From the IMG/VR virus record IMGVR_UViG_3300028559_000034, positions 4,533-68,532 of that record: 64,000 nt of DNA, one strand, 5' to 3'. The position numbers and the translations under genes are program-made. Below the pieces are notes generated by a model that ran no database searches, had not been told where the DNA came from, and worked only from the letters and a program-made list of their open reading frames with translations. Shown here piece after piece: positions 18,450-38,046 of the stretch. Within the stretch, counting starts at the first letter, position 1. Each line of letters begins with the position of its first letter. The DNA is from a virus.

Positions 18450-19211
18450 TTACTCAGAATCAGAGGAAGAACTTACTTTTCTATCCATCAACATAGGAAG
18501 AACTTCTTTTTCGTAATAAGAATCAAAACCCTCAAGCATCGATGAAATACTTGTTCCGGTATCAAGACCAATAACTTCATCAATCAATCCAAATTTTAAT
18601 GCTTCATCAGAATTATACCAACGGTCACGACGAGAGAACTCCAACACTTCATCAAATGTTTTACCACAATTCTTTGCTAACATTTTGAAAAGAACATAAT
18701 TATATTTTTCGGCCTCCATTTGATTTATACGAGTGTCTTGAACATTACCTTGATTTCCGTGACTAAGTTGGTGTGTCATAACTTTTGAAAAAATCAAAGA
18801 AGATCTTTTACCTTTAGTTCCAGAACTAAGTAATACTGAACCCATACTTGCACACATCCCAATATTGATTGTTGCAACGTCAGAGCTTATATAATTCATT
18901 AGATCAACAATTCCAAGTCCACAAAGAACTGAACCACCTGGCGAGTTAATATAAAGTGAAATATCTCTCTTCTCAACAGAATCAAGAAAAAGCAATTGTG
19001 CTTGAACAATATCAGACATATGTTGGTTTACTGGACCAGATACCCAAATTATTCTATCTTTAAGCAACCTACTAAAAACATCCATTTGTGTAACATGCAT
19101 TTGTCTTTCTTCGAGAATATAAGGTGTTAATGAGTTTTCAAACCTATCAAGGTTAAGTGATGATATCCCTTCACTAAGGGCAAATTTTTTAAATTCTGTT
19201 CCTATATTCAT
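18450..19211 (-). CDS. clpP: ATP-dependent Clp protease proteolytic subunit
   Basis: MDVFSRLLKDRII, QLLFL, YINSPGGSV, CASMG (catalytic Ser), MTHQ (His), RDRW..A..FGLID. Confidence 0.95.
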   Translation of the reverse strand: MNIGTEFKKFALSEGISSLNLDRFENSLTPYILEERQMHVTQMDVFSRLLKDRIIWVSGPVNQHMSDIVQAQLLFLDSVEKRDISLYINSPGGSVLCGLGIVDLMNYISSDVATINIGMCASMGSVLLSSGTKGKRSSLIFSKVMTHQLSHGNQGNVQDTRINQMEAEKYNYVLFKMLAKNCGKTFDEVLEFSRRDRWYNSDEALKFGLIDEVIGLDTGTSISSMLEGFDSYYEKEVLPMLMDRKVSSSSDSE

Positions 19212-19258
19212 AATTATTAATTTTAATAAAGATTATAGGTTTAATTTAATGAAAGTTT

Positions 19259-19415
19259 TTAGAGATTGGTAAATTTACTTTTTGAAGTATTTGGAGATAC
19301 TTTTGTATTTTCTAAAAATTGTTTATATAAAAAGATAGTACTTGATTATCCTATCAGAGTAGTTTAAATATTTCAATTTTTGATTACAAATTTCGTAATA
19401 ATCTGTTTTTTTCAT
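19259..19415 (-). pseudogene. Internally deleted, frameshifted tyrosine recombinase remnant
   Basis: Reads MKKTDYYEICNQKLKYLNYSDRIIKYYLFI*, then KQFLENTKVSP and ILQKVNLPI in other frames; resembles the N-terminal SAM-like domain and C-terminal tail of integrases (recognised from memory). Confidence 0.45.
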
Positions 19416-19434
19416 ACGTGAAATATATAATCTA

Positions 19435-19787
19435 GTTAGTGATAATAATTATAATGTATCAATAATATCTTTCATTCTTTTAACACAGGAAAAGATTTTC
19501 CCAAAATATTCTGCTCTTTCATTTTCATCCATATGTTCCCAATTATCCCACTCATCTCCAAAATATCCATAAGGAAAATCTGGATTAGAATCATCTTTTT
19601 CTGAAATATTCCATCTCATTTTAGGCAATTCAGATATTATTGATTTTAATTTTTTAATATTACTAACATCAGATATATTCAATTCTGAGTTTTCGTTAAA
19701 TCTCTTAATTCTATTGTTCTCCATAAGTTTCGTTTTTCAATTTAAGTTTATATATTAAATCTCAGAACTAAATACGTTAGTGATAAT
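19435..19787 (+). repeat. 12-bp direct repeat GTTAGTGATAAT flanking one gene
   Basis: Exact copies at 19435-19446 and 19776-19787. Confidence 0.75.
19449..19724 (-). CDS. Hypothetical protein with leader MENNRIKRFNENS
   Basis: 91-aa ORF; TAATATATA at 19749-19757. Confidence 0.75.
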   Translation of the reverse strand: MENNRIKRFNENSELNISDVSNIKKLKSIISELPKMRWNISEKDDSNPDFPYGYFGDEWDNWEHMDENERAEYFGKIFSCVKRMKDIIDTL

Positions 19788-19835
19788 TAATACACTTCCT
19801 CTTTAATAAAAAGGGTTGTTTTTAAAATTAAATTT

Positions 19836-20240
19836 CTAATATCCAAATCTATCATCAGAATTCAAAAGATCATCAAATTCATCTTCTGGTAAATAATCAA
19901 ACTCCCCAATAATAGTATTAACAACACTAAGTGCTCTATCATAATTTGAATAATTATCTAAAACTTCAGATAATATATCACTCATTTCCTTTAAGGATTT
20001 TGCTGATAAATCTTTAATAATAGACTTAATATCCATAACCTCGTATGGTCCTTTATCATCAAAACTATAACTACCAAACATCTCAATAGCAGTATCGATT
20101 TTTTTCATTATAGTATCTGTTAATTTATTTACAGAAATAGATTTTTGACTTTTTCTGCTTTCTATTTCAGATAGTAAAGCATCTGTTGGTACATCTTTTA
20201 GGAAATTACTCCAACTTTTTATATGTGTTTTATTTTTCAT
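19836..20240 (-). CDS. Hypothetical protein (leader MKNKTHIKSWSNFL)
   Basis: 134-aa acidic ORF. Confidence 0.7.
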   Translation of the reverse strand: MKNKTHIKSWSNFLKDVPTDALLSEIESRKSQKSISVNKLTDTIMKKIDTAIEMFGSYSFDDKGPYEVMDIKSIIKDLSAKSLKEMSDILSEVLDNYSNYDRALSVVNTIIGEFDYLPEDEFDDLLNSDDRFGY

Positions 20241-20281
20241 TTTTTATATATTTAAATCTCCGATAGTATAAACAATAAAAT

Positions 20282-20503
20282 TTAATTCCACAACCTCCAC
20301 CAAAAACTTTTGTTCTTTCTTTCTTGTTCAAGTTGTTCAACATATTTCATTAATTTATCTATATTGTATGTTTCACCACCTATATTGTAATTATCACAAT
20401 CACCTAAACAACTTCTATAAGTTATATGTAAATCATTATCAGAACAAAAGTTTTTTATCTGTTCTCTAAATTGTGTTCTAAATCCACCCGATATTGTTAC
20501 CAT
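20282..20503 (-). CDS. Hypothetical protein (73 aa)
   Basis: ORF in a co-directional run. Confidence 0.65.
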   Translation of the reverse strand: MVTISGGFRTQFREQIKNFCSDNDLHITYRSCLGDCDNYNIGGETYNIDKLMKYVEQLEQERKNKSFWWRLWN

Positions 20504-20525
20504 ATTTAAACTAGTAATTTTTTAA

Positions 20526-20768
20526 TTATTTTTTAATTATCATAAAATTATGATGCTCAAGATATTCTATATTATTTATTAGTTTATCCACTTCTAAAAA
20601 TTCTTTAATGTCTTCTATCTCTTTAAACCTACCTTCTCTAATCCAGTTGTTACCATAACCACCGTTCATAGATATCTTGTGTCCTAATTCGTAAAATAAT
20701 TTATCACCATCAGAGATTTGTTTAATATCTCTCATTGGTATCATGTTTGGTAAAATTTGGGTAATCAT
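20526..20768 (-). CDS. Hypothetical protein (80 aa)
   Basis: ORF in a co-directional run. Confidence 0.65.
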   Translation of the reverse strand: MITQILPNMIPMRDIKQISDGDKLFYELGHKISMNGGYGNNWIREGRFKEIEDIKEFLEVDKLINNIEYLEHHNFMIIKK

Positions 20769-20777
20769 AATTTCTTT

Positions 20778-21044
20778 TATTTATTTAACATCAACCATTC
20801 TATTTCTTTGTTAAGTTTATCCTTTGATGCTTGAGGTAGTTCTAATTTTGATAAAAATTCACATTTTTCATATTCCTCTTATTAGTTCCACACTCTCTTT
20901 TTAAGAAAGAATAATCACCATCTTTCAAAAGATAATACACATCATCAAATGTTTTAAAACTATTCGCAATTTTAATCACCTTTCATCACAATTTTTATTT
21001 GGCAAATCTAAATATTCTTTTTTCAAATAACCGATACGTTTCAT
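20778..21044 (-). pseudogene. Frameshifted small gene remnant
   Basis: Protein-like pieces in shifting frames (MKRIGYLKKEYLDL..., VIKIANSFKTFDDVYYLL..., EEYEKCEFLSKLELP...*) fill an otherwise ORF-less gap. Confidence 0.4.
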
Positions 21045-21055
21045 AATATTAAGTT

Positions 21056-21820
21056 TCATATATGTTTATTTTTAAATCCTATATTTGGTATGGATTTATT
21101 TATTATTTTAAGTAAATCCTCTTTTGATAGTGAATATAATTTTTGTAAATTATTTAAATTTACCTGATATGTTTTAGAATCCGGGGCCCCCCTTTCATGC
21201 CAAAGATGATAGCAAGTCGTACCCATTTGTTCATAACAATTAAGGAATACTTTTGATTTGTGAGATTGATAATCATCTTCTCCACCCCAACCATAGAATG
21301 AATTTTCATCCCATCCACCTATCTTAATTATAGATTCTTTTCTATACATAATTATACCACCTGCTAAACAAATTTTTTGTATATCTGTTTCTCCTCTACC
21401 TGGTCTACTTATTTTAGCCATTTGGTCTAAATTCATATTGACTTCATTAGGATTTAAGTCGATAACTCTACTATAAGGTGATACACACTCATAATTATCT
21501 AATTGCTTTAGAGCTTCTATCATCTTATGTGGATCCATAATTAAGTCACAATCTCCAAAAACTATTGTGTTTGTTGTTGAATATTGTAAACCAACATTAA
21601 AAGCCCACGCCTTATTAAAAGGAATATCTGATTTTGTAAAGATATATTTTATACCTTTAAGTGTGAAACTTGGTAGTTTAGGAGATTTATCTTGTTCTAC
21701 TATTATTATTTCTACTCCTCCAAATCCTGATACCCAATCTAATACTCTTCTTAAATTGTGTATTCTATCATTTCTATGTTTGTATGCTATTATAAATGTG
21801 AATAAATGTGAATGTGCCAA
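21056..21820 (-). CDS. GT-A glycosyltransferase (GT2/GT7 galactosyltransferase-like)
   Basis: IIIVEQD, FNKAWAFNVG, DCD (DxD), GGWDE..YGWGGEDD, HLWH; TTG start. Confidence 0.88.
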   Translation of the reverse strand: MAHSHLFTFIIAYKHRNDRIHNLRRVLDWVSGFGGVEIIIVEQDKSPKLPSFTLKGIKYIFTKSDIPFNKAWAFNVGLQYSTTNTIVFGDCDLIMDPHKMIEALKQLDNYECVSPYSRVIDLNPNEVNMNLDQMAKISRPGRGETDIQKICLAGGIIMYRKESIIKIGGWDENSFYGWGGEDDYQSHKSKVFLNCYEQMGTTCYHLWHERGAPDSKTYQVNLNNLQKLYSLSKEDLLKIINKSIPNIGFKNKHI

Positions 21821-21888
21821 ATTTAATTTTCTATTTTATATTAAAAAATTATTTATTTGTTGAATATATTAAATATAGAAAAAGATAT

Positions 21889-22425
21889 TTAGATAGATAT
21901 TCTTATCTTATCATATTTCATTAAAAGATTGTACATTTTATCAAATTCAACGTCAACATTAGCAACTCTTCTTTCCATCCATCTATTATTTGAAAAACAT
22001 TCAACAATCATTCCTTTCTTAAAATCTTCTTTCTTCTTTGGAAAGAAGTATAATTGTTTATCAACAAAAGAAAATGATAGTCCTTCATGTATATAAGATT
22101 TATTATTGGAATCTGTATTAAACATTAATATAGCTAGTTGTCTCTCTTGACCATTTCTAAAAATTCTAACAGGTGTTAATTCATCTTTATACTTAACTAT
22201 AATAGAATCTTGATCAAAGTGTTCCATAATATGGAGACAATCATTTCTTAATTGATTATGATCTAAAGAATTAAAAGCTAATAGAGAATCTCCAAATTTA
22301 TCCTGATAATACTCTTTAATATCAAGTAAAAAATATTCTCTAGAATATAAATATGAGGTTAAGCTTTTGATATTATCAGATGATAATAAAATATATGATA
22401 TCTGAGCATTTTTCAAATCTAACAT
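21889..22425 (-). CDS. Hypothetical protein
   Basis: 178-aa ORF; TAATATATA at 22430-22438. Confidence 0.7.
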   Translation of the reverse strand: MLDLKNAQISYILLSSDNIKSLTSYLYSREYFLLDIKEYYQDKFGDSLLAFNSLDHNQLRNDCLHIMEHFDQDSIIVKYKDELTPVRIFRNGQERQLAILMFNTDSNNKSYIHEGLSFSFVDKQLYFFPKKKEDFKKGMIVECFSNNRWMERRVANVDVEFDKMYNLLMKYDKIRISI

Positions 22426-22440
22426 AGTCTATATATTAAC

Positions 22441-22590
22441 TTAAACAATCACATAAATTTTTAATAAATCGTAAATTGATAGATTCTTAATTGAAGAAAA
22501 ATAATCACATGCTTGTTCGTATTGATAACAATCAAATTTTAAAATCACATCAATATCATTATGAATTTGTTTTAGATAAAATGTTTTCAT
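22441..22590 (-). CDS. Small hypothetical protein (49 aa)
   Basis: Hand translation MKTFYLKQIHNDIDVILKFDCYQYEQACDYFSSIKNLSIYDLLKIYVIV*; fills the gap. Confidence 0.55.
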   Translation of the reverse strand: MKTFYLKQIHNDIDVILKFDCYQYEQACDYFSSIKNLSIYDLLKIYVIV

Positions 22591-22617
22591 AATATTATAT
22601 ATTTATATAAGTAAAAA

Positions 22618-23832
22618 TTATTTATCAAAATGTTCGAAAATTTCATTAAAAAAGATATTTGATACAATATCTTTCCATTTTTTTTGAACAATTATAGAAT
22701 CGTGTACAGTAATTATTTTTATATCCATATTTAAATCCATAATTCGTCTTATTACACAATTAAATATTAAGTTAGACTCGGCTTTTTGTAAATCATAAGC
22801 TAATATCTTATAATCACTATTTTCTTTTTTATATAATTTTATAAAATTATGAATACTTGGAAATAATGATTGAAATAATTTATCAGATTTAGAATTTATT
22901 CTATTATGACCAAATAATACCTTATATGTTAATTTTTTAGCTTCTGATTTATCCTTTATTTCTAAATTATCAATCAAATATTGATAATAATTACCACCTT
23001 TAACTAAAATTGAAAATAGTTTAAATTCATCTTCTTTAACCCATCTTGTATCAGAATCTTTAATAAGCTTACATAAAAATAAAGGTTGACTATTATTAAT
23101 ATCAATTTCACAAGTTTCTTCATCATCTATTAAAAGACAATTTTTACGAATAAAAGATTTAAGAATTGTGAAATTTGTATGCATCCTACCATATGAATCA
23201 AAATGATAAAATATATGTTTGTCATTTATTGAATCTACTGAATATTTATTTCTATTATAAATATCAATATCATCATTTTTAAGAAGATCTAAATAAAAAA
23301 TAGATCTTTCAAATTGAATTTTAACGCTATATAAATCTGAAACTAATTTAGATTTTATATCTTTATGTATTATACTAGATTTATCTAATTCAAATTGAAG
23401 ATGTTTTACAATATATTTTTTTATTAAAACTTTATCAAAATTTTTATATCTATAAATATGACTAGTTAGAATATTTTCATTTAATCCATATATTCTTGAA
23501 TTGGATCCTTTAAGGTAATTTTTCTGAAGTTTTAAAATATCATTATCTCTTAAAAAATTTATATAATAATTATATAAATATCCATATTTATCCTTTAATA
23601 TAACAGAAGATAATATAAAAGAATTTTCTTTTTTAAAATAATATTTTAATAGTAAATTATGAACTATATCAATAATATAAGCTGTTTTTAACTTATGTTC
23701 TTTATATTGAAAGTTTGTATTTTTTGACAACTCTACTAGGACTTCTGGTAAAAATTGTAAGCTGTTTTTTTTGTTACGAGGTGATACCTTTAACATCACA
23801 TTATTAAGGCAAATATTCTTATCTAAAACCAT
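22618..23832 (-). CDS. Family-A polymerase palm-like protein
   Basis: GRMHT, EIDINNSQP (motif A-like), K...YKVLFG (motif B-like), LQKAES, TVHDSII (motif C-like). Confidence 0.6.
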   Translation of the reverse strand: MVLDKNICLNNVMLKVSPRNKKNSLQFLPEVLVELSKNTNFQYKEHKLKTAYIIDIVHNLLLKYYFKKENSFILSSVILKDKYGYLYNYYINFLRDNDILKLQKNYLKGSNSRIYGLNENILTSHIYRYKNFDKVLIKKYIVKHLQFELDKSSIIHKDIKSKLVSDLYSVKIQFERSIFYLDLLKNDDIDIYNRNKYSVDSINDKHIFYHFDSYGRMHTNFTILKSFIRKNCLLIDDEETCEIDINNSQPLFLCKLIKDSDTRWVKEDEFKLFSILVKGGNYYQYLIDNLEIKDKSEAKKLTYKVLFGHNRINSKSDKLFQSLFPSIHNFIKLYKKENSDYKILAYDLQKAESNLIFNCVIRRIMDLNMDIKIITVHDSIIVQKKWKDIVSNIFFNEIFEHFDK

Positions 23833-23861
23833 ATAGATTATATTCTATAATTTGTATTAGA

Positions 23862-25175
23862 TTACTTTTTAGATTTAAATTTTCCTTTCTTTTTATCAGA
23901 AGTCGGATCTTTCTCAAAAGTATCATAAATATCAGGATAAACTTGTCCATCAGCATCTTTATCATAGGCAATAGAGAAGAAATCTCCAAAATCCAAAAGA
24001 CCACCTCTAGTAAGATCAGTCTCTTTTAATTTATTTAAAAAAATATCAAGTAGAGTATCTATTTTTTCAATAAATAAATTAAAAAGTATAATCGTATTTT
24101 CAGTAAAAATACCAATCGGCTTTTTTCTTTTCTTATTAAAAGATCCAAGTATCACTTTAAAAATATATTCTAATTTATCTGATTCCCCAATAATCTCATT
24201 AGTCATTTTATTAGGAATTAATTCTTTATTTATTTTGAACTTATCTTTATCAAAAAATTCTGGTATAGTGAAATCAAAATTTAATAAATCCTCTTTAACA
24301 TCACTAACATAAACATTAAAAAGCTTACAAATTAAGTAAATATATGCCTCATCTCTTCTAACACCTTTAATTTTAATTTCATCTATATTAATACTTTGAC
24401 AAAAATTTAAAAAATTAAAAAGAATTAAAGTATATACTTCAACAAATTCAGTTGAATTTTCAGAGCTAATTCTTTGATAAAGAGGATTTAAAATTTCAAA
24501 AGTAATATTATTATTTGATGCTGTTCTAATAACAATTTTTTGAAGATTTTTTTGAAAATCTTCATCCATTAAAAATGATCCTTCTGATTGAGGATTAAGT
24601 ATTTTATAGAAAAAGAATGAAAAAGACTTTTCACCAAAAACATATTCTAAATCTTTTTCAGAAGTATTAAGAAAATATTTAAGAGCCTCTTTCATTTGAT
24701 CGGATAATCTTCCTTCAAAAATAACAGGCAAACAATCAACATTAAATAATCTAGAATACTCTCTTAATTCATCTATATCATACTGATATTTTCCATTTTT
24801 ACAAATAGATGCCAACACCAATCCATTTTTAGGAACTCTACTATATTCAATATTAGCGGGTTGATTATCTGGAAAATATTCAAAACAAAACCACCAATTC
24901 TTTGGCATTAATCCTTTTATTCTATTATCAAATGTATTAAAATAATTTATAGATGGATTATAATAATTTTGCATAGCTAAATCAATTAGATTAATAGCCT
25001 CACTTGATATAGATTTAGGTTTTATTATAAAAGAATTGCCGTTCCAATTAACCCAAATTTTAGATCCTTGGACATCTTCATAGACGATTATATCATCACT
25101 GAATATATCATCTAAAACTTTATCATCTTGTCCATTTAATGTGATTAATTTACTCATATCATTATTATAATCCAC
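23862..25175 (-). CDS. RNA-ligase-fold protein with degenerate active site
   Basis: VYEDVQGSKI in place of E-K-x-(D/H)-G; FEYF, LPVIFEG, IVIR follow in ligase order. Confidence 0.5.
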   Translation of the reverse strand: MDYNNDMSKLITLNGQDDKVLDDIFSDDIIVYEDVQGSKIWVNWNGNSFIIKPKSISSEAINLIDLAMQNYYNPSINYFNTFDNRIKGLMPKNWWFCFEYFPDNQPANIEYSRVPKNGLVLASICKNGKYQYDIDELREYSRLFNVDCLPVIFEGRLSDQMKEALKYFLNTSEKDLEYVFGEKSFSFFFYKILNPQSEGSFLMDEDFQKNLQKIVIRTASNNNITFEILNPLYQRISSENSTEFVEVYTLILFNFLNFCQSINIDEIKIKGVRRDEAYIYLICKLFNVYVSDVKEDLLNFDFTIPEFFDKDKFKINKELIPNKMTNEIIGESDKLEYIFKVILGSFNKKRKKPIGIFTENTIILFNLFIEKIDTLLDIFLNKLKETDLTRGGLLDFGDFFSIAYDKDADGQVYPDIYDTFEKDPTSDKKKGKFKSKK

Positions 25176-25272
25176 TTTTATTATTTTGTTTTTATCTACT
25201 TGTATAAAGATTAGAAAATCTTTAATATTTCAAATACTATTTTTAATATATATAAAAAAATGATGTTCGATA

Positions 25273-26349: not shown

Positions 26350-26350
26350 T

Positions 26351-28568: not shown

Positions 28569-29012
28569 ATGAATTATTTAAAAAAATATAAATTATTTAA
28601 TGAGTCTATTGATGATATAAAAGATAGTCTTTTAGAATTAAAAGATGATGATTGGATTGTACAACATGAAAAATTTGATATTTCTAGTGACTTTGCATTC
28701 ACTGATGAATTTTTAATATTTAAAAGAGGTAAAAGTGGATACTATCTAGATAACACCGAATGTGAGCTTTTTAATATTAACGAAGTTATAAATAATGTAA
28801 TAAGATTTGTAAATATGTGTAAAATTGATGATTATAAATATAGAATTATAACAAATGATGGTCAATACACACTTGATATTACAAAAAAAATAAATGAGTT
28901 AGATCAAGTTGATATTAGTGATGTTGTTGGGAATACACATCTTCATTTTAAGAAAAAAACTAATATTGACCTAGAAAATATTAAATTCATTTCATGTCAA
29001 ATATTAAAATAA
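28569..29012 (+). CDS. Hypothetical protein with leader MNYLKKYKLFNES
   Basis: 147-aa ORF. Confidence 0.75.
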   Translation: MNYLKKYKLFNESIDDIKDSLLELKDDDWIVQHEKFDISSDFAFTDEFLIFKRGKSGYYLDNTECELFNINEVINNVIRFVNMCKIDDYKYRIITNDGQYTLDITKKINELDQVDISDVVGNTHLHFKKKTNIDLENIKFISCQILK

Positions 29013-29039
29013 AACCCATCTAAAGATGGGTTTTATTTT
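29006..29039. terminator. Bidirectional terminator
   Basis: aaaataaaacccatc-taaa-gatgggttttatttt between convergent genes. Confidence 0.85.
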
Positions 29040-29046: not shown

Positions 29047-29724
29047 TTAATTTAGTAATTCAATTTTACCTCGACTAAAATCTTTAAAAGAACATTGTTT
29101 ACCAGTTTCGTGATCTACAACTAAATCTTCTTTTATTCTATAAGATCTTTTCTTATTTGATCTAGAACCCTTACCAACCTGATCTAATCGATTTTGATAA
29201 GATTTCTTATTCCATTTTTCTTCTTCAATAGATCTTAATTTCTCTTCAAGTCTTTGAAAAGCCAAATCTTCATTCTTTTTTTGATCTCTAGTATCTTGAC
29301 ATTTAATTTGAATACCAGTTGGCTTATGTGTTAATATAACACAACTAGATACTTTATTAACATTTTGGCCACCAGCACCACTACTTCGAGTATATTGTTT
29401 AGTGACTTCATTACGATTAAAATTATATTCTAATTTATCGCTTGGATCAATTATCGCAACTGTAATTATTGAAGTTTGTGTTCTACCATTTTTTTCAGTT
29501 GGTGGAATACGTAGCCAACGATGTGGTCCACTTTCATTTTTGAAGAATGTTTTAACTTTTTTACCAGTAATTCAGATAGATGAGAATCCATCTCTATTAA
29601 TAACTTCATAATTAAAGTTATTAACTCGTGATGTTTTGAGATAAATATCTCTTAAATCTTCTACAAGAAGTTTTGAATCTTGTCCGCCTTCAGCGGCTCT
29701 TATTTCTATAATAATTTGCTCCAT
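29047..29724 (-). CDS. RF1-like class I peptide chain release factor lacking domain 1, with in-frame TGA at codon 51
   Basis: Hand translation: [20 protein letters not shown]...[40 protein letters not shown]...[34 protein letters not shown]...RSNKKRSY. One frame of 225 codons plus stop; TGA at 29574-29572. Confidence 0.9.
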
Positions 29725-29820: not shown

Positions 29821-29852
29821 CAAATATATAGTTTTATATATTAAGATCCAAA
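29821..29852 (-). promoter_or_regulatory. Bacteroidota-type promoter for the release factor transcript
   Basis: TTTG (29852-29849), 20-nt spacer, TATATTTG (29828-29821). Confidence 0.7.
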
Positions 29853-29907: not shown

Positions 29908-30334
29908 CTCTTTTAATCTCTTTAGGTAAAAGATCCACAATTTGGTTCTTTCCTTGAAGTGGATTTTGATCCCTACTAGAAATATCAAATATTAATTTTA
30001 ATCTTTCATCTTTTGACGTATTTGTATCATAATAAAATCTCCTCTTTCCAAGACTTACACCTGATTTATTCTCAAGCCAAATCTTATCTATAAGGTGATT
30101 TTTTACTAAACACCATAAAATATAATTATTACTATACTTTAATATCCAAAATGAGTCAGACTTAGGATGAATCTTTTCAATTTTAACAGAAACTCTTTTC
30201 CCATCTCTATACTCAAATTTAGTATCTTCATTATCAAGCATCATAATAGATTCATAAGTGATAGGATTATATCCTGGCTTATGAAAATTAGTTTTCTTAA
30301 AACCTAAATCTTTAAGTTTTTTATGAGCATTCAT
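29876..30334 (-). CDS. Hypothetical protein
   Basis: 152-aa ORF; TATATTTG at 30346-30339. Confidence 0.75.
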   Translation of the reverse strand: MNAHKKLKDLGFKKTNFHKPGYNPITYESIMMLDNEDTKFEYRDGKRVSVKIEKIHPKSDSFWILKYSNNYILWCLVKNHLIDKIWLENKSGVSLGKRRFYYDTNTSKDERLKLIFDISSRDQNPLQGKNQIVDLLPKEIKRDFLLEQLFGS

Positions 30335-30374
30335 TTTACAAATATAATTATTTATATATAGTTATATATAGTTT

Positions 30375-31571: not shown

Positions 31572-31612
31572 TAAAATATATTTTAATATATAGAATAAAT
31601 AAAACCTAATAT

Positions 31613-32071
31613 ATGCACAAAGATAATACACCAATATTTAATGTAGGAGACAGAAAAGTAGTTAATTTTAAAGATTTTTCAAAAGATATAGAATCTGAAA
31701 AAAATGCATTATTAAAAATTAAAAGACAGAGTAAACCAAATTCTGAAAGACAAAAATTAATTGGCAATCCTAAAAATAAATATAATAAGGTAACTCATAA
31801 AATGGACTGGAATCTTAGTCCAGATATGATTAAAGATAAAATTGATGCTATTGAAGAACTAGATGAATCAAAAATTAATGAATCTAGTATGGATGATAAT
31901 GTATATAATGATCTTAAGCAATCTTCTCAATATAGAAAATTAGTTGATGATTTCAGAAATGCTATAAGAAAATTTGAAAGTAATATCTCAAATATATATG
32001 ATGAAGGAGATACAGATCAAAATATGGCATTTCAATCTGTTATTCAAGATGCTATAGATGAAGCTCAATAA
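31613..32071 (+). CDS. Hypothetical protein
   Basis: 152 aa; TAATATATA at 31584-31592; internal KINES site. Confidence 0.7.
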   Translation: MHKDNTPIFNVGDRKVVNFKDFSKDIESEKNALLKIKRQSKPNSERQKLIGNPKNKYNKVTHKMDWNLSPDMIKDKIDAIEELDESKINESSMDDNVYNDLKQSSQYRKLVDDFRNAIRKFESNISNIYDEGDTDQNMAFQSVIQDAIDEAQ

Positions 32072-32803
32072 TCATTCTAATAAATTATCAATTCTTTTGT
32101 TTCTTAAAAAAGGTTTATATATGGAATAACTAATTGAATTTACATTATCAATAATATAAGTTAATTTTGGATTTATAATATTATAATATAATATGAATCC
32201 AACTTTGAGTACTGGAGAAAATGTAGATTCTTGTGTAATATTTATTTTTATATCAGATATATCATACTGAACATCATCATAAGATAATAAAAAATCAGCA
32301 TCCCACCTCATAAATGAATCAATATAAACATCAACATTACCAAATAGATTTCCATATTTTGTAAAAGTATTAAATTGGTTTAATGACAATACAAGTGGTT
32401 CAGTATTATAAACTGGTGAATCCATAATATAATCTGAACATATTCTAGCATTTGTAATAATATTAGGTAAATTAATATTTTTAATTTCAGTAATAATTTT
32501 TCTAGAATTATCAATTATTGACATATAATTACTATTTGAATGATTTAAAATATCAATAAAGTTAATATCTCCTTTAGACTTTATATCAGATAAAATAACT
32601 TTTAAAGTATATTGCTTAATCTCATTAGTAATTTTTTCTCTTAATAAGTTATAATACACTTCTTCTGTATCCATCACAGATGGTGATAGAGTAACTGATA
32701 AAGTATATTTTTGATAATTTGTAATATTAGATTTTACTCGATTAAAAGGTAGATCGATATCTATTTTTTTAAAAGCATTTTTAAAAAATTCTTCTATATC
32801 CAT
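32072..32803 (-). CDS. Truncated, divergent major capsid protein paralog
   Basis: Aligns by eye to the C-terminal half of the 574-aa MCP: IITN/AVTN, YGNLFGNVDVYIDSFMRWD/VGQIGDISIYVDPYMKYN, ITQESTFSP/VISEATFAP. Confidence 0.65.
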   Translation of the reverse strand: MDIEEFFKNAFKKIDIDLPFNRVKSNITNYQKYTLSVTLSPSVMDTEEVYYNLLREKITNEIKQYTLKVILSDIKSKGDINFIDILNHSNSNYMSIIDNSRKIITEIKNINLPNIITNARICSDYIMDSPVYNTEPLVLSLNQFNTFTKYGNLFGNVDVYIDSFMRWDADFLLSYDDVQYDISDIKINITQESTFSPVLKVGFILYYNIINPKLTYIIDNVNSISYSIYKPFLRNKRIDNLLE

Positions 32804-33750
32804 TAAAATTTAATTCCATTTTCGTCATAATTCATGATAAGTAGTTCGATACCCTTAGATTGTTGTTTTTTAACATCAGCATTATTACCACCTTGAGCAG
32901 AACTTCTGAATACTTCTTTTTCAGTCCACCTATATTTATCTCTTGGTAATAATTCTTCCAGTAATGGAAAATAATAATATGATAATGACCATCTACATTT
33001 TGTAGTTTTAATTAATTCTAATAATCGTCTGTGTGATGCTGGACCAAATACACCCTCAGAATCTGATCCATACCAAAATAATCTCTTAGCATCATCTTCA
33101 CCCTTAGCCTCATTAAATCTGGCATATGGTGGATCTAAATAAAGATAAGTATCTTCTGAATCATATTTCAATATTAATTCCTCAAAATCTGTGCTATAAA
33201 ATTCTGTAATTGAACGTAATTTATTTGTATAAGTATTATTTTTTAACTTCTTAATGAGGACTTCTAATTTTAGACGATCTTTATCTTTTTTATAACCGTT
33301 AAATCCTGCCCCACGAGGGTAAACAGAATTGTGAGCCGATGTAATTAAAAAAGCATAAATGGCTGCCTTTTCAAAATCTCCTATCTCAAAATTCATATCA
33401 TCAAGAAAATTATTTTTAGTATATTCCTTATAGACTGATTTATAAAAATCCCATTTATTTAATACATTTTTTTCACTAGTATAAAGAATATTAAATGGTT
33501 TAGATATATTTTCTAAATAAGTAACAAATTTTTCAGGATCTGAGCAACATTTATATAAGTTAACCTGGTGTTTATTTTTATCATTATAGATAACTTGTTC
33601 AAATTTAAGAGAATTATCATCCATATAAGTTCCCATAGCTCCAGAGAAGGGTTCTATATATGTTTTTATTCCTGTTTTAGGAATTTTTTTATTAATAAAT
33701 TCCATAAAAACATTTGAGGACTTACCTCCAAAATAAGCTATGACTGACAT
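32803..33750 (-). CDS. DNA adenine methyltransferase (Dam/D12-like)
   Basis: YFGGKS, YIEPFSG, YND.N, YLDPPY, ELLIMNY. Confidence 0.9.
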   Translation of the reverse strand: MSVIAYFGGKSSNVFMEFINKKIPKTGIKTYIEPFSGAMGTYMDDNSLKFEQVIYNDKNKHQVNLYKCCSDPEKFVTYLENISKPFNILYTSEKNVLNKWDFYKSVYKEYTKNNFLDDMNFEIGDFEKAAIYAFLITSAHNSVYPRGAGFNGYKKDKDRLKLEVLIKKLKNNTYTNKLRSITEFYSTDFEELILKYDSEDTYLYLDPPYARFNEAKGEDDAKRLFWYGSDSEGVFGPASHRRLLELIKTTKCRWSLSYYYFPLLEELLPRDKYRWTEKEVFRSSAQGGNNADVKKQQSKGIELLIMNYDENGIKF

Positions 33751-33848
33751 TTCTTTCTATATTTATTTTTTAATACTTATTATAAATAAAAAAAAATAAA
33801 AAGTTTTTGGAAATCACTGGGTAGATGTCTTAACATAATATATAAAAT

Positions 33849-34487
33849 ATGATAATATATAAAGTAACAAATAATATAAATGGTAAAATCTATATCGGAC
33901 AAACTATAAATAGTCTTGATAAAAGATGGAAAAGACATACATGGAAATGCACTATAAATAAAATATCAATGGCCATAACAAAAGCAATATCAAAATATGG
34001 CAAAGAAAACTTCACGATAGAAGAAATAGATAAAGCGGATAGCATAAAAGAACTAAATGAGAAAGAGATCCATTATATAAAATTATATAATTCATTATCA
34101 CCAAATGGATATAATTTAACAACAGGTGGTGATAATAAAAGATTATCAGATGAAACAAAAAATAAAATATCAAACTCAAACAAAGGAAAAAAAGCTTCAG
34201 AGGAAACAAGGAAAAGGTTATCAGACTCACACAAAGGTATTAAAATGTCAGAAATGACTAAGATAAAGTTGAGGTTGATAAATAAAGGAAAAAAACCATC
34301 AGAAAATACAATAAAAGGATCTATTCAACACAATCAAAAGACATACACATTAAAGAGTCCAAGTGGTGAGATAGTTACCTTTACCAACATGAAAGAATTT
34401 TGCAAAGAAAATAACCTATGTAATTCAAAATTATGTCTGGTTGCATCTGGTAAAAGAAAAAATCACAAAGGATGGACACTTCCCTAA
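33849..34487 (+). CDS. GIY-YIG homing endonuclease with NUMOD3-like repeats
   Basis: IIYKVTN.INGKIYIGQT...R...E...GYN; S(D/E)ET(K/R)xK/R repeats. Confidence 0.9.
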   Translation: MIIYKVTNNINGKIYIGQTINSLDKRWKRHTWKCTINKISMAITKAISKYGKENFTIEEIDKADSIKELNEKEIHYIKLYNSLSPNGYNLTTGGDNKRLSDETKNKISNSNKGKKASEETRKRLSDSHKGIKMSEMTKIKLRLINKGKKPSENTIKGSIQHNQKTYTLKSPSGEIVTFTNMKEFCKENNLCNSKLCLVASGKRKNHKGWTLP

Positions 34488-34996
34488 TCTTTTGATAACA
34501 AAAAGTTTTCCAACGAAGGTCTCTGATTTGATTTTGATTCTTCTCTAACCCTCATCAGTATTTTACCTAAATTATTTTTACCCCTACCATCACATGGTCC
34601 ACAAGTACAAACTCCAAAAAAGTTATCATGCCACCAGTTACCCTCAATTAATTCTTGATCACCAGTAGATAACAACATTTCTTTTAATTCAGTATGTTTA
34701 AATTTCTCACGAACTCCAAATAACATAACATCTAATTTAACATTATCCCAGTCTTTTCTAACTTTAATTATTCTACCAAATTGCTTAACTTTACCAGCTT
34801 GTTCAGCTGGCATTTTAGCAATAAGTTCTCTACAATCCATCATAGAAATATACTTACCATCAATTTGTTGATCGTTTTTAACTTTCATAGCTACGTAGTA
34901 GTGTTCTACAGTTGGGTAAGTAATGCCCTGGTGTTCTATTTTAGCGGGATAAAAGTTAGAAAGAAAACGATATCTCCCAGAAAATGATTCTATCAT
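34484..34996 (-). CDS. NADAR-family (YbiA-like) protein
   Basis: FLSNFY, YPTVEHYY..MK, KF...L...LLSTG...LIEGN.WHD.FFG, G.NNLGKILM.VRE. Confidence 0.92.
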   Translation of the reverse strand: MIESFSGRYRFLSNFYPAKIEHQGITYPTVEHYYVAMKVKNDQQIDGKYISMMDCRELIAKMPAEQAGKVKQFGRIIKVRKDWDNVKLDVMLFGVREKFKHTELKEMLLSTGDQELIEGNWWHDNFFGVCTCGPCDGRGKNNLGKILMRVREESKSNQRPSLENFLLSKD

Positions 34997-35047
34997 GATT
35001 ATTATATTAGATATAAATAAATATGTTTTTAATTAATATATAAGATT

Positions 35048-35401
35048 ATGAAATATATAAAAAAATTTGAAAATAAAGAAATTAGTGATGAATTTGAAGA
35101 AATAAGATCAATTTTAAGAGATTTAAAGGATGAATACACCTATATGGAAGGTCAAATATTTCTACCTGAAAAAGAAACAGACCAAATTGAAATTCACTTA
35201 GAATGTGAAAATATTTTTAGCGAAGATGTGAAAAAAGGAAAGGGAAATTTGAAGTACCAAAAATCTAAAATGGAATTTATTGATCTGATTATAAAAACCA
35301 TAGAAAGATTAGAATTGGCATTGGATAAGAAAACATTCGTTCAAAACTTATGGAATTGGGACCACTGGCAAGATACTAAAATAAAAATATTTATTTATTA
35401 A
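35048..35401 (+). CDS. Hypothetical protein with leader MKYIKKFENKE
   Basis: 117 aa; TAATATATA at 35034-35042. Confidence 0.75.
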   Translation: MKYIKKFENKEISDEFEEIRSILRDLKDEYTYMEGQIFLPEKETDQIEIHLECENIFSEDVKKGKGNLKYQKSKMEFIDLIIKTIERLELALDKKTFVQNLWNWDHWQDTKIKIFIY

Positions 35402-35405
35402 AACA

Positions 35406-35433
35406 GAAACACCAACCTTTTGGTTGGTGTTTC
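35406..35433. terminator. Terminator hairpin between the tmRNA and a convergent gene
   Basis: gaaacaccaacc-tttt-ggttggtgtttc, perfect 12-bp stem. Confidence 0.8.
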
Positions 35434-35439
35434 GTTTAG

Positions 35440-35799
35440 TGGAGGCGCCGACGATGAAATCGGGTCTTCCTCAGTTAAAAACAATTAATCATTCACAAGC
35501 TTAGAAAGTTTTTCTTTAACTTACAAAATAGAAAGTTGTTTCGACTCAAAAACACTCTAACAAAAAACTATCATTATTTACTGTTATGATTCAGTATGAA
35601 TTTTATGAAAGTATCAATTAAGCTACTTCAAGCTCATTCACAACGAGCAAATTGTTTTGTAGAGCAGCTACTAAATCTTCACTGGTTCCTACTTCTGTAA
35701 CGTTTCCGTTTACGATTTTGATAATTTATTTTAATCGGACTTTATCAAACCGATGCTTGCTTAATCACCTTTACTCTGCGAATCAATTCACTCGCCCCC
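35440..35799 (-). ncRNA. ssrA: tmRNA (360 nt)
   Basis: 5' GGGGGCG pairs with 3' CGCCTCC-A with a G3:U wobble (Ala identity); T-arm CCGAT-TTCATC-GTCGG; internal tag frame 35707-35618; CCA not encoded. Confidence 0.88.
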
Positions 35800-35809
35800 A
35801 TTTATTTTA

Positions 35810-35840
35810 CAAATATATATATAATATTTTAAATATCAAA
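35810..35840 (-). promoter_or_regulatory. Bacteroidota-type promoter for tmRNA
   Basis: TTTG (35840-35837), 19-nt spacer, TATATTTG (35817-35810). Confidence 0.75.
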
Positions 35841-35849
35841 AAAGTTTAT

Positions 35850-36266
35850 TTAAAATGGAGCTTTATTTTTATTCTCATCGTAATAAAAAGAAAAAGATAA
35901 AATAGGAATATACTCTTTACTCTCATATAATTCAACTTCCAATTGATATTGTGGTAAAATATCTTTTTTCATCTTATTAATAACAATATCAAAAGTTTTC
36001 ACAATATTTTTGAATTTTTCTTTTCTTTGAAGAAAAACATATACTGATATATCTAAGTCAGATCTTTCTACACTTGTTGTTATTCCATTACCATTTAAAA
36101 AAGTCCTAATTAAATAACAAAGATGATCCTCGACATCACCATCTTCTTCATAATTAACATCTTCTTCTTCATTAGGTAAATCATTATCTTCATAAGTTTC
36201 ATCATCAAGATATTCAAAGTGTTCCTTAATTTTTATATTCTCTATTTTTATGTTTTTTACAATCAT
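35850..36266 (-). CDS. Acidic hypothetical protein
   Basis: 138 aa; start overlaps the stop of the upstream peptidase. Confidence 0.7.
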   Translation of the reverse strand: MIVKNIKIENIKIKEHFEYLDDETYEDNDLPNEEEDVNYEEDGDVEDHLCYLIRTFLNGNGITTSVERSDLDISVYVFLQRKEKFKNIVKTFDIVINKMKKDILPQYQLEVELYESKEYIPILSFSFYYDENKNKAPF

Positions 36267-37624
36267 TATTTTAATTCTATTTTTATAAATTGATCTTCAA
36301 AATAAACATCAGGATCTATTTTATATTTATCTAATAGTAAATTCATCATTTGTAAGTCCTCATAAACAGTTAAAACATCCGGATCATCCACCTCTATTTT
36401 TATATAAGCAGTTCCATACTCACTAACCATTTTAGTCTCTAAAGTAAATGCTGCTGCTTTAAAATCTGATATAAATTTACCATATTTTCTAAGAACTTCT
36501 TCGTCAAATCCAACTTTTTTAACCGTTGGTAAGTTTTCCCAATCTACTTTTAAACAAGCCTCTGCTAATCTTATTAAATATGATATATTTTGACGTTCAT
36601 CAACTGTATGTTCAGAAAAATAACCAACAGATATATTTGTACATTCCGGAATCTTATCTATAAAAGAAGCAGAATCAGTATAAACGCCAGTTGGATCTAA
36701 AGATATTTTTAATCCAGATTTATTTAATTCTTTAGCAAGAGCAGTTGCAAATTCGTTAGAACAACATTGTCTACCTAATTGACTTGTAATAACCGAAAAG
36801 TAATTTCTTCTATCAAATGATACACATCTTTTAACATTTTTTAAATGCTCAATATTTTCAAATATATCAGCAACTTTGTTAGATCCAATACCTCCTCTCT
36901 CTTCACCAATAAAGAAATAGTAAATTCCTGGTATATTATATTCCATCATATATAACATGACAGCAACACCAGACTTATCATCAGCTCCCAAAATTGAAGT
37001 ACTATCAGTAACAAATATTTCATCACCATCAACAATAGTACTATATAAAACAACATTACTTTGTTTTCTGTCTGCTGTATCTAAATGAGATGTAAACATT
37101 GTTTCTGATTTTCCAATTATTTTATAATAATTACCAAATTCGTCTTTTTGTAATCCACTAGGTAGAAATTTAACTACTTCTTCCTCATGTCCATGAGGAT
37201 ATGTTTTAGTAGTAAATGATATAAAAGTAGATCTTACATCTTTAGGATTAAAAGTAAATTTTGGTATTTCAACTTTTTTAAATGTAGGTTTATCAATTTT
37301 ATTAACTGGTCTCCTTCCATTTTTTAAATTATTATAACTTTGACCAAAATCAAATATCTGTTTTCTATCAAAGAAGCTAGAACCATCATCACCAGTGAAA
37401 AAATATTTAATATAATTACCAATCTTCATTGATTGAATTTTACCATTAATAGTAACATCAAAATTCCAATCAAACTTAGAAACATCTACTAATTCTATTT
37501 TTAATTCATTTCTTAACGAATAATCTCCTTCCATTCTCATAAGAGCCTCAGCTATAGGACCTCCTATATCATCAATTATATCATATAATTTACCAGTAAA
37601 TCTTATATAAATTGTTTTATTCAT
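36266..37624 (-). CDS. M28/M20-type zinc peptidase with extra N-terminal domain; paralog of 13823-14995
   Basis: SHLDT, LGADDKSG, GEERG, SFDRR, YTDSA, NISVGY..EH. Confidence 0.85.
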   Translation of the reverse strand: MNKTIYIRFTGKLYDIIDDIGGPIAEALMRMEGDYSLRNELKIELVDVSKFDWNFDVTINGKIQSMKIGNYIKYFFTGDDGSSFFDRKQIFDFGQSYNNLKNGRRPVNKIDKPTFKKVEIPKFTFNPKDVRSTFISFTTKTYPHGHEEEVVKFLPSGLQKDEFGNYYKIIGKSETMFTSHLDTADRKQSNVVLYSTIVDGDEIFVTDSTSILGADDKSGVAVMLYMMEYNIPGIYYFFIGEERGGIGSNKVADIFENIEHLKNVKRCVSFDRRNYFSVITSQLGRQCCSNEFATALAKELNKSGLKISLDPTGVYTDSASFIDKIPECTNISVGYFSEHTVDERQNISYLIRLAEACLKVDWENLPTVKKVGFDEEVLRKYGKFISDFKAAAFTLETKMVSEYGTAYIKIEVDDPDVLTVYEDLQMMNLLLDKYKIDPDVYFEDQFIKIELK

Positions 37625-37647
37625 AATTTATTTAGTTTTTATATATA

Positions 37648-38046
37648 TTAATTATCAACTATAACTTCTTGAGAATTTTTATAATCAACAATTACTTGAC
37701 CGGGTTTCATATCCGATGTTTTTTTAACAAACTTAGCTTTACAATAGACTATTTTAGATTTAACACCCTTTGGTACCTTTGAATTCTTAGCCGCTAATTT
37801 AGAAACTTCTTTTATTAATTCTGGCGAAGGCAACTTATCTTTAACTCTTATAATTATATGACTGCCTGGAACACCAGCAGCATGAAACCATAAATCATCT
37901 TCATTAGCCATTTTTGTTGTTAAATAATCATTAGATAAAGCATCTTTTCCTATAATAATAGTAAAATCATCTATAATTAAAGTTTTTAAGTTTGGAAATT
38001 TATCAGATTTAGACTCATAAAAATTACAATATCTTTTTATTTTCAT
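37648..38046 (-). CDS. Stand-alone NFACT RNA-binding (DUF814) domain protein with leader MKIKRYCNFYES
   Basis: IIIGKDA.SND.LT, DLWFHA..VPGSHIII, A..S, VKK.....PGQV. Confidence 0.88.
   Translation of the reverse strand: MKIKRYCNFYESKSDKFPNLKTLIIDDFTIIIGKDALSNDYLTTKMANEDDLWFHAAGVPGSHIIIRVKDKLPSPELIKEVSKLAAKNSKVPKGVKSKIVYCKAKFVKKTSDMKPGQVIVDYKNSQEVIVDN

Follow-up and report, generated by a model that had tools for sequence, protein, structure and literature searches.

That huge phages encode tmRNAs, SmpB and release factors (RFs) has already been published: the accessible text of Al-Shayeb et al. 2020 (PMC7162821) reports huge phages with tmRNAs, SmpB, RF1/RF2 and RRF, the tmRNAs having been called by ARAGORN. 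The available part of a preprint (10.1101/2021.08.26.457843) describes other phages that switch code, with RFs and suppressor tRNAs involved. In bacteria, a survey of 8,164 prfB motifs gives none with TAG and never a programmed shift in prfA (PMC12421855), and every CUU-stop +1 case listed in RECODE is a bacterial prfB (PMC10885494), as far as the accessible portions of these two sources go.

Here we analysed a window of 64,000 nucleotides from a viral contig that is a fragment (68.5 kb, about 12% complete by CheckV) of a ‘Mahaphage’-type megaphage from lake water. The phage is identified by its major capsid protein (MCP), 66–70% identical to the counterparts in LR745206 and LR756502 (phages of 634–642 kb), and by the gene order MCP – NFACT-R – M28-like – orf – tmRNA – NADAR – methylase, which is kept in both. 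A preliminary description had read four features of the window as a ribosome-rescue and quality-control toolkit. All four are present (Table 1), the tmRNA being confirmed after extra work, and they are probably separate members of a large megaphage translation and proteostasis gene set, not one co-regulated system: an RF1-type factor apparently gated by read-through, a real tmRNA, an intact ClpP and a small NFACT-R domain protein. The new point is the RF gene: judging from its sequence and those of its homologues, a conserved stop codon breaks its frame, and the ribosome has to read through it. We found no description in print of a phage RF gene gated by a conserved recoded stop.

Table 1. Coordinates of the features in the window
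Feature	Position	Strand	Evidence
ClpP proteolytic subunit, 253 aa	18450..19211	-	Pfam PF00574 CLP_protease E 4e-54
Hairpin terminator, two-way, just past the RF stop	29006..29039	.	
Class-I release factor of RF1 type lacking domain 1, 225 codons	29047..29724	-	NCBIfam, Pfam, AF2
In-frame TGA, codon 51 of the RF gene, context TCT ATC TGA ATT	29572..29574	-	read directly
TATATTTG box, 97 nt 5′ of the RF start	29821..29828	-	
Intrinsic terminator immediately 3′ of the tmRNA, 12 pairs then T run	35406..35433	-	
tmRNA (ssrA), ~360 nt	35440..35799	-	Rfam RF00023, ARAGORN -ps80, covariation
tmRNA tag frame: resume codon GGA, 29 codons, TAA	35618..35707	-	Rfam alignment of resume region
TATATTTG box, 10 nt 5′ of the tmRNA 5′ end	35810..35817	-	
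Stand-alone NFACT-R protein, 132 aa	37648..38046	-	PF05670 E 1e-16
Strong terminator 3′ of the major capsid gene, between it and NFACT-R	38466..38502	-	
T4 gp23-like major capsid protein (context)	38520..40244	-	Pfam Gp23 E 5e-27

The tmRNA was missed by ARAGORN at default settings, by Rfam at its gathering score and by an Rfam E-value scan over 23 kb. It was picked up by ARAGORN at an 80% threshold and, with 451 bases searched, RF00023 matches it at full length (model positions 1–374), the 27.4 bits falling short of the gathering score (47). In the acceptor, the 5′ strand GGGGGCG is paired to CGCCTCC, G3·U70 included, the T-loop is non-canonical, and the 3′ CCA is not encoded, CTA standing in its place. 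Compensatory changes preserve the 7-bp acceptor and the T-arm in all 15 related tmRNA sequences, and the LR756504 homologue, at 65.2 bits, exceeds the Rfam gathering score. The predicted tag is (A)GNVTEVGTSEDLVAALQNNLLVVNELEVA, its conserved frame varying by synonymous third-base changes and one 3-nt indel among 14 aligned sequences; we take the resume codon to lie where analogy with E. coli places it, and the tag is about three times the length of its E. coli counterpart. These features indicate a real but divergent tmRNA with a tRNA-like domain and a tag frame. A TAnnTTTG-type box precedes the gene in both relatives as well. Since default ARAGORN found none of the 15 loci of this family, LR745206, LR756502 and LR756504 among them, such copies may have gone unlisted in Al-Shayeb et al. 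2020. Both the tmRNA and SmpB occur in all five related megaphages examined; SmpB is absent from the contig itself, so the pairing of the two rests on the relatives. The tmRNA would be charged with alanine and, with an SmpB encoded at another place in the phage genome, would free stalled ribosomes by adding a tag of about 30 residues.

ClpP carries about 25 additional N-terminal and 35 additional C-terminal residues, and its Ser/His/Asp triad aligns with that of S. pneumoniae ClpP (1y7o), which marks it as a Clp peptidase with intact catalytic residues. The NCBIfam ClpP models give 227 and 210 bits, both below their curated cut-offs. The model for the ClpP-related head maturation protease gives only 62 bits, and a gp21-like prohead protease gene (weak match, E 1e-4) separately adjoins the capsid gene; a role for ClpP as the head protease was rejected. 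An orthologue 63% identical is found in LR745206, and ClpP occurs in four of the five relatives, ClpX in only one. ClpP is a plausible generic partner for the tmRNA route and could degrade tmRNA-tagged chains.

NFACT-R aligns to residues 457–554 of B. subtilis RqcH (E 8e-17) and also matches CCDC25 (E 1e-5). By match it holds the same domain as RqcH/NEMF and stand-alone proteins such as CCDC25, but it differs from RqcH/NEMF in having neither NFACT-N nor a coiled coil. Because it stands without NFACT-N, RqcH-type alanine tailing cannot be inferred. Metagenomes hold 130 homologues close to 130 aa in length, including one with 94% identity that lies on a contig of 633,653 bp; in both LR745206 and LR756502 the gene directly follows that of the capsid. 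To judge by these matches, the gene immediately after the capsid gene encodes a small conserved protein built on a ribosome- or RNA-binding domain. A Bacteroides thetaiotaomicron control genome contained neither NFACT-R nor NFACT-N; if the phage infects a member of Bacteroidota, a partner on the host side may thus be missing.

The toolkit reading, in which the four genes would jointly counter host defences that cut mRNA or tRNA, is only partly supported, and we regard coordination of this kind as unlikely. In its favour, tmRNA, SmpB and the RF co-occur in all five relatives and ClpP in four, and the 43–74 tRNA genes per relative would fit a replacement of damaged tRNAs. Against it, NFACT-R is found in only two relatives, RtcB in one and NFACT-N in none, and the genes share neither linkage nor orientation: in relatives, distances of tens to hundreds of kb separate them, as in LR745206 (RF, 48 kb; ClpP, 75 kb; NFACT-R/tmRNA, 202–205 kb). 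Further, the RF has a codon-reading domain and so is not a stop-independent rescue factor. Three rescue routes had been claimed; the tmRNA route stands, with SmpB in the relatives, while the GGQ-release and NFACT-R/RqcH routes are not supported. Nor was the proposed regulation confirmed. Host-type promoters and a late motif had been assigned, but sigma-70-like sites (76 observed, 77.9 expected), TATATTTG (18 against 14.6, not enriched in the window overall) and TATAAATA (37 against 34.2) all occur near their expected counts; the TATATTTG box before the RF is a candidate -7 element of the Bacteroidota type. The 474-nt gap before NFACT-R, where a leader peptide had been proposed, instead contains the terminator of the MCP gene and, on the opposite strand, an endonuclease-like frame that lacks a start, and its Phe_leader matches (35.6 and 29 bits) fall below the gathering score of 55.

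The RF was translated with the TGA taken as W (protein P0001). Pfam RF-1 matches it at E 2e-29, and the NCBIfam models give 190 bits for RF1 (cut-off 400), 130 for RF2 and 72.9 for PrfH (cut-off 166.65). The PCRF match, the only one in the contig, is limited to profile positions ~99–194, and domain 1 was found neither in the contig nor in the five relatives. The AF2 model (pLDDT 89.5) superposes on ribosome-bound T. thermophilus RF1 with TMq 0.92 and rmsd 1.8 Å, against TMq 0.64 for PrfH. Compared with bacterial RF1 (prfA), the protein has the same domains 2–4, GGQ, P-x-T, best HMM and PDB matches and ribosome-bound fold, but lacks the ~105-residue domain 1, has L at the position of T. thermophilus Q181 and Q at that of H193, and bears an in-frame stop. 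PrfH is likewise short and without domain 1; ArfB, in contrast to the window RF, consists of a GGQ domain and tail only. An ArfB- or PrfH-like rescue factor was rejected on the PrfH score, the retained codon-reading domain and the lack of an adjacent RtcB. With its PPT motif and domains 2–4, the GGQ factor should need a stop codon and should thus be a codon-dependent terminator of RF1 type that lost domain 1, not a rescue factor.

The in-frame TGA of this gene went unmentioned in the preliminary description. No in-frame ATG, GTG or TTG follows it for about 100 codons. TGA stands at the same site in LR756502, LR756501, LR745206 and four IMG/VR contigs, and in 16 of 80 later IMG/VR loci; the following base is C or A in all cases seen. 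Sense codons at the site encode any of C, K, T, R and S, which leaves the residue itself unconstrained. The wider family is recoded in 64 of 76 distinct phage homologues, either by an in-frame TGA/TAG or by a prfB-like CTT-TGA-C +1 frameshift. In all 28 distinct +1 cassettes the stop follows CTT; an SD-like run is present in 24 and the +4 base is C in 21, the stop being TGA (21), TAG (5) or TAA (2).

It is quite unlikely that the factor reads UGA itself, through changed or widened specificity in a true prfB-like self-switch, or acts on non-stop signals like PrfH. The differences from RF1 at the Q181 and H193 positions do make codon specificity uncertain: the universal stacking His (H193) is Gln in 48 of 77 family members and in the window, and the window’s clade has L, V or I in place of Q181. 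The use of TGA, TAG and TAA across the family also suggests that termination in general is sensed. However, 76 of 77 members retain P-x-T and all 77 retain T194, which by the tripeptide rule means reading of UAA/UAG; the fold is nearer to RF1 than to PrfH, and the RtcB partner of PrfH is not present (RtcB in the one relative is not adjacent to the RF).

It is very unlikely, too, that phage or host reads TGA as an amino acid (code 4 or 25), which would make the RF codon a sense codon, or that the code changes late in infection through a phage suppressor tRNA. Such switching has precedent in the phages of the preprint cited above, as far as its available part shows; LR756501 has two tRNA(CUA) genes, and on short contigs some gene callers translate the RF straight through. 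Yet TGA terminates 12 of the 70 called genes, often in ATGA overlaps (coding density 91.5%). The capsid and other matched genes lack an internal TGA here and in two relatives: no other credible gene has one, nor do homologues of 16 window genes matching L001/L002, within the aligned stretches, a single TGA at the NFACT-R end being likely a true stop. Among 176 tRNAs in the clusters of three relatives, which cover part of the tRNA regions, neither anticodon UCA nor a UGA-suppressor tRNA was found, and a +1 frameshift at the stop in distant members makes no sense if the stop is a sense codon. The phage uses the standard code, with TGA a normal stop. A decaying pseudogene or an assembly error is hardly credible: the gene is broken under the standard code, and long contigs carry only calls of 128–169 aa, but more than 20 independent contigs share the TGA at this codon, dN/dS on either side of it stays far below 1 (0.09 and 0.16, against L039; purifying selection), and the 225 codons hold no further stops or shifts, GGQ and PPT being conserved in 73–77 of 77 distinct members.

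The TGA thus appears to be under selection. Full-length RF would be made only if the ribosome reads through the in-frame UGA, most likely by a near-cognate tRNA at the weak UGA-A/C context, so RF output should rise when UGA termination by host RF2 is slow. Such a switch would work like prfB, minus self-recognition. By the established rules RF1-type factors do not read UGA, and the switch would therefore sense host RF2 and not itself, a logic that we do not explain with confidence.

The phage is of the same kind as the huge phages in the accessible text of PMC7162821 and has the same tmRNA and SmpB pair. The Lak RF2 and Jade RF1 of recoded phages are likewise phage-encoded class-I release factors; unlike the window RF, the Lak-A1 factor is full length and uninterrupted, with SPY at the RF2 SPF position, and, in the available part of the preprint, the phages that carry the published factors have a stop recoded throughout their genomes, which the present phage does not. 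As in the +1 frameshift of prfB (RF2), a release-factor gene is stopped early in a weak context, and distant phage family members carry the full prfB-like cassette of SD-like run, CTT, TGA, C and +1 frame, with TAG in 5 of 28 cassettes against none of the bacterial prfB motifs in the accessible portion of PMC12421855. The window RF differs from prfB in staying in frame, needing read-through and not a shift, in lacking the SD-like run, in being interrupted in domain 2 and not domain 1, and in encoding an RF1-type protein that should not read its own UGA.

The release factor (RF) gene of this virus indeed lacks domain 1 and retains the GGQ motif, but its product is predicted to be a codon-dependent factor of RF1 type and not the rescue factor first proposed, because of its RF1 scores, its modelled RF1 fold, the presence of PPT (the P-x-T codon-reading motif of RF1) together with GGQ, and the absence of domain 1. 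Translation under the standard code ends after 50 codons, and the next in-frame start comes ~100 codons later, past GGQ; read through the TGA, it encodes 225 aa. NCBIfam scores for this protein are 190 bits for RF1, 130 for RF2 and 73 for PrfH, and the RF1 match (models NF001859 and TIGR00019, prfA) covers only profile positions 105-328 of 347, at 190 bits against a cut-off of 400. Among PDB entries, it is matched best by T. thermophilus RF1 (residues 107-318). An AlphaFold (AF2) model, m85bf3329c357, with a pLDDT of 89.5, aligns to ribosome-bound RF1 with a TMq of 0.92 and an rmsd of 1.8 A, against 0.64 to PrfH, and domains 2, 3 and 4 are modelled with the folds seen in RF1. The model adopts the open ribosome-bound shape; its agreement with the closed conformation found in crystals of free RF1/RF2 is lower (TMq 0.55-0.57).

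Domain 1 is missing from the contig and from all five related megaphages compared, the PCRF match starting only at about position 92-99; each of these relatives has exactly one PCRF match, the domain-1-less RF. Release factors truncated of domain 1 still release peptides in vitro but are not known to respond to RF3. GGQ and PPT are both present in the window RF, and PPT occurs in 73 of 77 distinct family members. Among the T. thermophilus residues that we take to be involved in decoding (G116, E119, Q181, T186, H193 and T194), G116, T186 and T194 are kept, whereas E119 has become D, Q181 L and H193 Q. An identity as PrfH is disfavored by a score of 72.9 bits against a cut-off of 166.65; RtcB is encoded in one of the five relatives, where it does not adjoin the RF.

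The TGA at codon 51 of the RF gene is shared by the window, LR756502, LR756501, LR745206 and four IMG/VR contigs, and some of these genes carry a second TGA nearby. The dN/dS ratio is well below 1 on both sides of the TGA (0.09 and 0.16, for example, against the related sequence L039). The base following the interrupting stop is always C or A; a weak UGA-C context is noted in a recent survey (PMC12421855). Sense codons at this site encode C (TGT), K, T, R or S, and because these versions vary, it seems to be the stop itself, rather than a residue, that is conserved.

The phage uses the standard code. Use of code 4 or 25 throughout the phage is ruled out by the TGA gene ends (12 of 70 called genes), by a coding density of 91.5% and by the lack of internal TGA codons in any other credible gene; a run of seven small genes, all ending in TGA and several with a 4-base ATGA overlap, likewise indicates that TGA works as a stop here. 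No UGA-suppressing tRNA(UCA) was found among 176 tRNAs in 18 regions of three relatives, which represent part of their tRNA regions. All three of the relatives whose tRNA regions were examined encode tRNA-Trp(CCA). A U11-A24 D-stem pair, the configuration of the Hirsh UGA suppressor of E. coli, is present in three of four phage tRNA-Trp(CCA) genes (L015:2321-2392, L018:1034-1105 and L028:1664-1736, in related sequences). Three tRNA-like genes have eight-base anticodon loops (L015:1793-1875, gcca; L028:1744-1834, ttac; L021:865-938, gtag), two of them within a few genes of tRNA-Trp in their cluster, and LR756501 (735 kb) has two adjacent tRNA genes of amber-suppressor type with CTA anticodons (L030, 690585-690737). 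In the protein database (L003-L012), long contigs have the RF as C-terminal pieces of 128-169 aa annotated 'peptide chain release factor 1', whereas short contigs have the full-length protein (225-229 aa), presumably as a result of gene calling under a code in which TGA is sense.

A profile scan of IMG/VR returned 171 relatives of this RF, of which the best 80 were examined. Within these 80, 39 loci lie in one frame and 33 need a +1 shift, while the remaining eight, unclassified by the pattern script, were placed by eye. The one-frame loci comprise 31 with in-frame stops and eight uninterrupted; among the 31, TGA occupies the window's site in 16 and TAG in three, the other in-frame stops being TGA or TAG 31-39 codons before P-x-T. 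At all 28 distinct shift sites from the same best 80 of 171, the stop is preceded by CTT; 24 have a Shine-Dalgarno (SD)-like run and 21 a C after the stop, which is TGA in 21, TAG in five and TAA in two. RF1 outscores RF2 in each of six shift-type genes. With L072, an atypical shortened copy, excluded, a tree of 76 distinct C-terminal parts separates a low-GC clade of 26, including the window and recoded at the window's site, from a clade of 50 recoded 37 codons before P-x-T. In total 64 of the 76 are recoded, and 12 are uninterrupted within the alignable part.

If the full-length RF is made only when a ribosome bypasses the stop, its level would track slow termination there, rising as termination at the internal stop slows. 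Given the RF1-like appearance of the factor and the prevalence of UGA as the interrupting stop, the activity sensed by UGA-interrupted members would be that of host RF2; members interrupted by TAG or TAA would sense RF1 or the factor itself. The P-x-T motif predicts that the window RF reads UAA and UAG and not its own UGA. We put forward tentatively, with rather more doubt than confidence, a widespread phage family of domain-1-less RF1-type factors under programmed recoding at stops within domain 2. Megaphages of low GC, whose hosts are probably Bacteroidota, would achieve this by in-frame UGA/UAG read-through, and higher-GC phages by a re-invented prfB-style SD-CUU-UGA-C +1 frameshift, so that the phage gauges the termination capacity of its host and makes its own factor only when this is short. 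Such a factor would probably act without RF3, and the change of H193 to Q may mean an altered specificity.

The tmRNA also holds up, although its Rfam score is below the gathering value. Default ARAGORN and Rfam gathering-score scans do not detect it, and an E-value scan of 23 kb likewise misses it. Within the gap 35401-35850, the minus strand starts GGGGGCG and ends CGCCTCCA; ARAGORN at an 80% threshold calls a 361-nt tmRNA, and RF00023 aligns over all 374 model positions with 27.4 bits, short of the gathering score of 47 (Rfam, 451 bases). The copy in LR756504 reaches 65.2 bits, above the Rfam cut-off, and syntenic DNA of 71-72% identity is found in LR745206 and LR756502. A candidate in LR756501 (21.1 bits) was rejected for its poor alignment and excluded from later counts. 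Across IMG/VR, 30 stretches match a 17-letter tmRNA pattern, and in ~20 the 3' end is also identical.

The 15 tmRNA sequences compared comprise that of the window, three from phage records and 11 from IMG/VR contigs. All 15 have a 7-bp acceptor stem with every pair formed and G3.U70, the alanine identity pair. Acceptor pair 6:67 is variously C:G, U:A or A:U, and at least seven distinct T-stems occur, each fully paired, with a non-canonical T-loop; RNAalifold on four sequences yields 46 pairs, 16 with compensatory double changes. The tag frame runs 29 codons to TAA; among 14 sequences it varies by synonymous changes and a single 3-nt indel, and ARAGORN's guess VNNDSFLLECF ('Tag not identified') was set aside in its favor. 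By Rfam alignment and by analogy, the resume codon would be GGA. A terminator lies directly 3' of the tmRNA, and a TAnnTTTG-type box, presumably the Bacteroidota -7 element, lies 5' of it in all three close phages, with no enrichment of the box in the window. Scans of the window for sigma-70, TATATTTG and TATAAATA motifs also gave no enrichment, and the host-type promoters and late motif of the preliminary description are not confirmed. Default ARAGORN recovers none of the 15 loci, and it was the tool used for tmRNAs in the 2020 huge-phage study (PMC7162821).

The stand-alone NFACT-R protein is 132 aa long and matches PF05670 (E 1e-16) and RqcH residues 457-554 (E 8e-17). RqcH and NEMF combine NFACT-N, a coiled coil and NFACT-R, whereas the phage protein is NFACT-R alone, and NFACT-N was found in none of the five relatives. 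Metagenomes contain 130 stand-alone homologues of ~130 aa, some on contigs of 227-634 kb, and a 633,653-bp contig encodes one that is 94% identical. The gene directly follows the capsid gene in LR745206 and LR756502. In place of the leader peptide once suggested, the 474 nt upstream of NFACT-R contain the terminator of the capsid gene and, on the opposite strand, a start-less frame of 148 codons; this gap is only ~80 nt in LR745206. Phe_leader, ohsC and other weak Rfam matches were dismissed as chance or terminator hairpins.

The ClpP product (253 aa) is, by its sequence, a real Clp peptidase: it matches Pfam CLP_protease PF00574 (E 4e-54, 183.7 bits against a cut-off of 20.2) and keeps the Ser-His-Asp triad positions in an alignment with S. 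pneumoniae ClpP (1y7o). It falls below the NCBIfam equivalog cut-offs (227.3 bits against 361, and 210.1 against 249). A head protease is ruled out, since the ClpP-related head maturation protease model gives 62 bits, far under the NCBIfam ClpP models, and a separate weak gp21-like prohead protease match exists. The three complete relatives that have ClpP genes carry two or three copies, and LR756501 has none. A role of this ClpP in tmRNA tagging may be envisaged.

The parent contig has 68,532 bases and is ~12% complete; the window has a G+C content of 25%. The gp23-like capsid protein encoded there shares 66-70% identity with its counterparts in LR745206 and LR756502, uncultured phages of 634-642 kb, and is more distant from those of LR756501/3/4 and Lak phages. 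The relatives LR745206/LR756502 and LR756501/3/4 are members of the published 'Mahaphage' clade, the largest of which have Bacteroidetes as predicted hosts (PMC7162821). Lake-water metagenome runs contain DNA near-identical to the window, and no RNA run was listed among those that do. The neighborhood includes a T4-like portal, the prohead protease match, the capsid, PhoH with an intein and several homing endonucleases.

Features of the window, with positions and supporting observations
Feature	Position	Strand	Observations
PhoH-like gene split by intein with LAGLIDADG endonuclease	10727-12598	-	Pfam PhoH, Intein_splicing, LAGLIDADG_2
NUDIX hydrolase	17824-18393	-	adjoins ClpP
ClpP	18450-19211	-	
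Two large genes, 404 and 437 aa	22618-25175	-	64-69% identical to genes of both close relatives; no Pfam, NCBIfam or PHROG family match
Release factor	29047-29724	-	
Mobile endonuclease genes	33849-34487, 59912-61234, 46124-46753	+	GIY-YIG/NUMOD3, I-TevI-like DNA-binding domain, TnsA-like N-terminal domain; GIY-YIG gene without match within 48-kb regions of two close relatives
NADAR-domain gene	34484-34996	-	adjoins tmRNA; kept in both close relatives
tmRNA	35440-35799	-	
M28/PepT-like peptidase	36266-37624	-	between NFACT-R and tmRNA; PHROG peptidase E 3e-67; conserved; second partial copy ~13-24 kb off in both close relatives (L001, L002)
NFACT-R	37648-38046	-	
Stop-to-stop frame, 148 codons	38021-38467	+	between capsid gene and NFACT-R; no usual start codon; C-terminal part by eye resembles PD-(D/E)XK or Vsr-type homing endonuclease, apparently an endonuclease remnant
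Capsid	38520-40244	-	
Seven small genes	61241-63952	+	

The four elements on which a dispersed toolkit for ribosome rescue and quality control had been proposed were thus largely recognized correctly; that interpretation of them finds only partial support and for the most part was known before. SmpB and the domain-1-less RF occur in all five relatives and ClpP in four, whereas NFACT-R was not found in three of the five. SmpB was not found on the 68.5-kb contig itself (~12% of the genome), and a true ClpX was found in only one relative of five. Huge-phage tmRNA, SmpB, release factors and Clp proteases are already known, the first three from one study (PMC7162821), so that the toolkit in itself contributes little; what merits pursuit is the conserved stop in the RF gene together with the recoded phage RF1-type family. 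Moreover, inventories of phage translation genes are incomplete, since these RF genes are split by standard-code callers and this tmRNA family escapes standard tools. A domain-1-less release factor also constitutes a natural experiment on RF3-independent termination.

Among known factors, PrfH differs in its RtcB2 partner, which is not found next to the phage RF, and the Lak-A1 factor differs in being full length and uninterrupted, with SPY at the RF2 motif position. A close parallel is prfB, whose frameshift is the textbook case of a gene sensing its own product. The window RF resembles a prfB-type switch in that a stop has to be bypassed, with no in-frame start for ~100 codons after it. Unlike prfB, it continues in frame 0, without a CUU-U slippery site, an SD-like run or a +1 shift; the prfB-type cassette is a feature of the 28 distinct distant homologues and not of the window gene. 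Release factors of phages with recoded genomes have been reported (preprint 10.1101/2021.08.26.457843). We found no published description of recoding in phage release-factor genes, and the supplements of PMC7162821 and of that preprint may list these genes or tmRNAs. A 2025 survey of 12,753 bacterial genomes found the programmed shift in prfB alone, with no case in prfA and no use of TAG (PMC12421855), and the RECODE CUU-stop cases are all bacterial prfB (PMC10885494). If the proposal is true, a switch of this kind would be seen for the first time outside prfB and for the first time in a gene of RF1 type. The presence of the prfB cassette in a phage family of RF1 type, alongside read-through variants at the homologous position, would indicate that the switch arose anew and can be wired to sense another factor.
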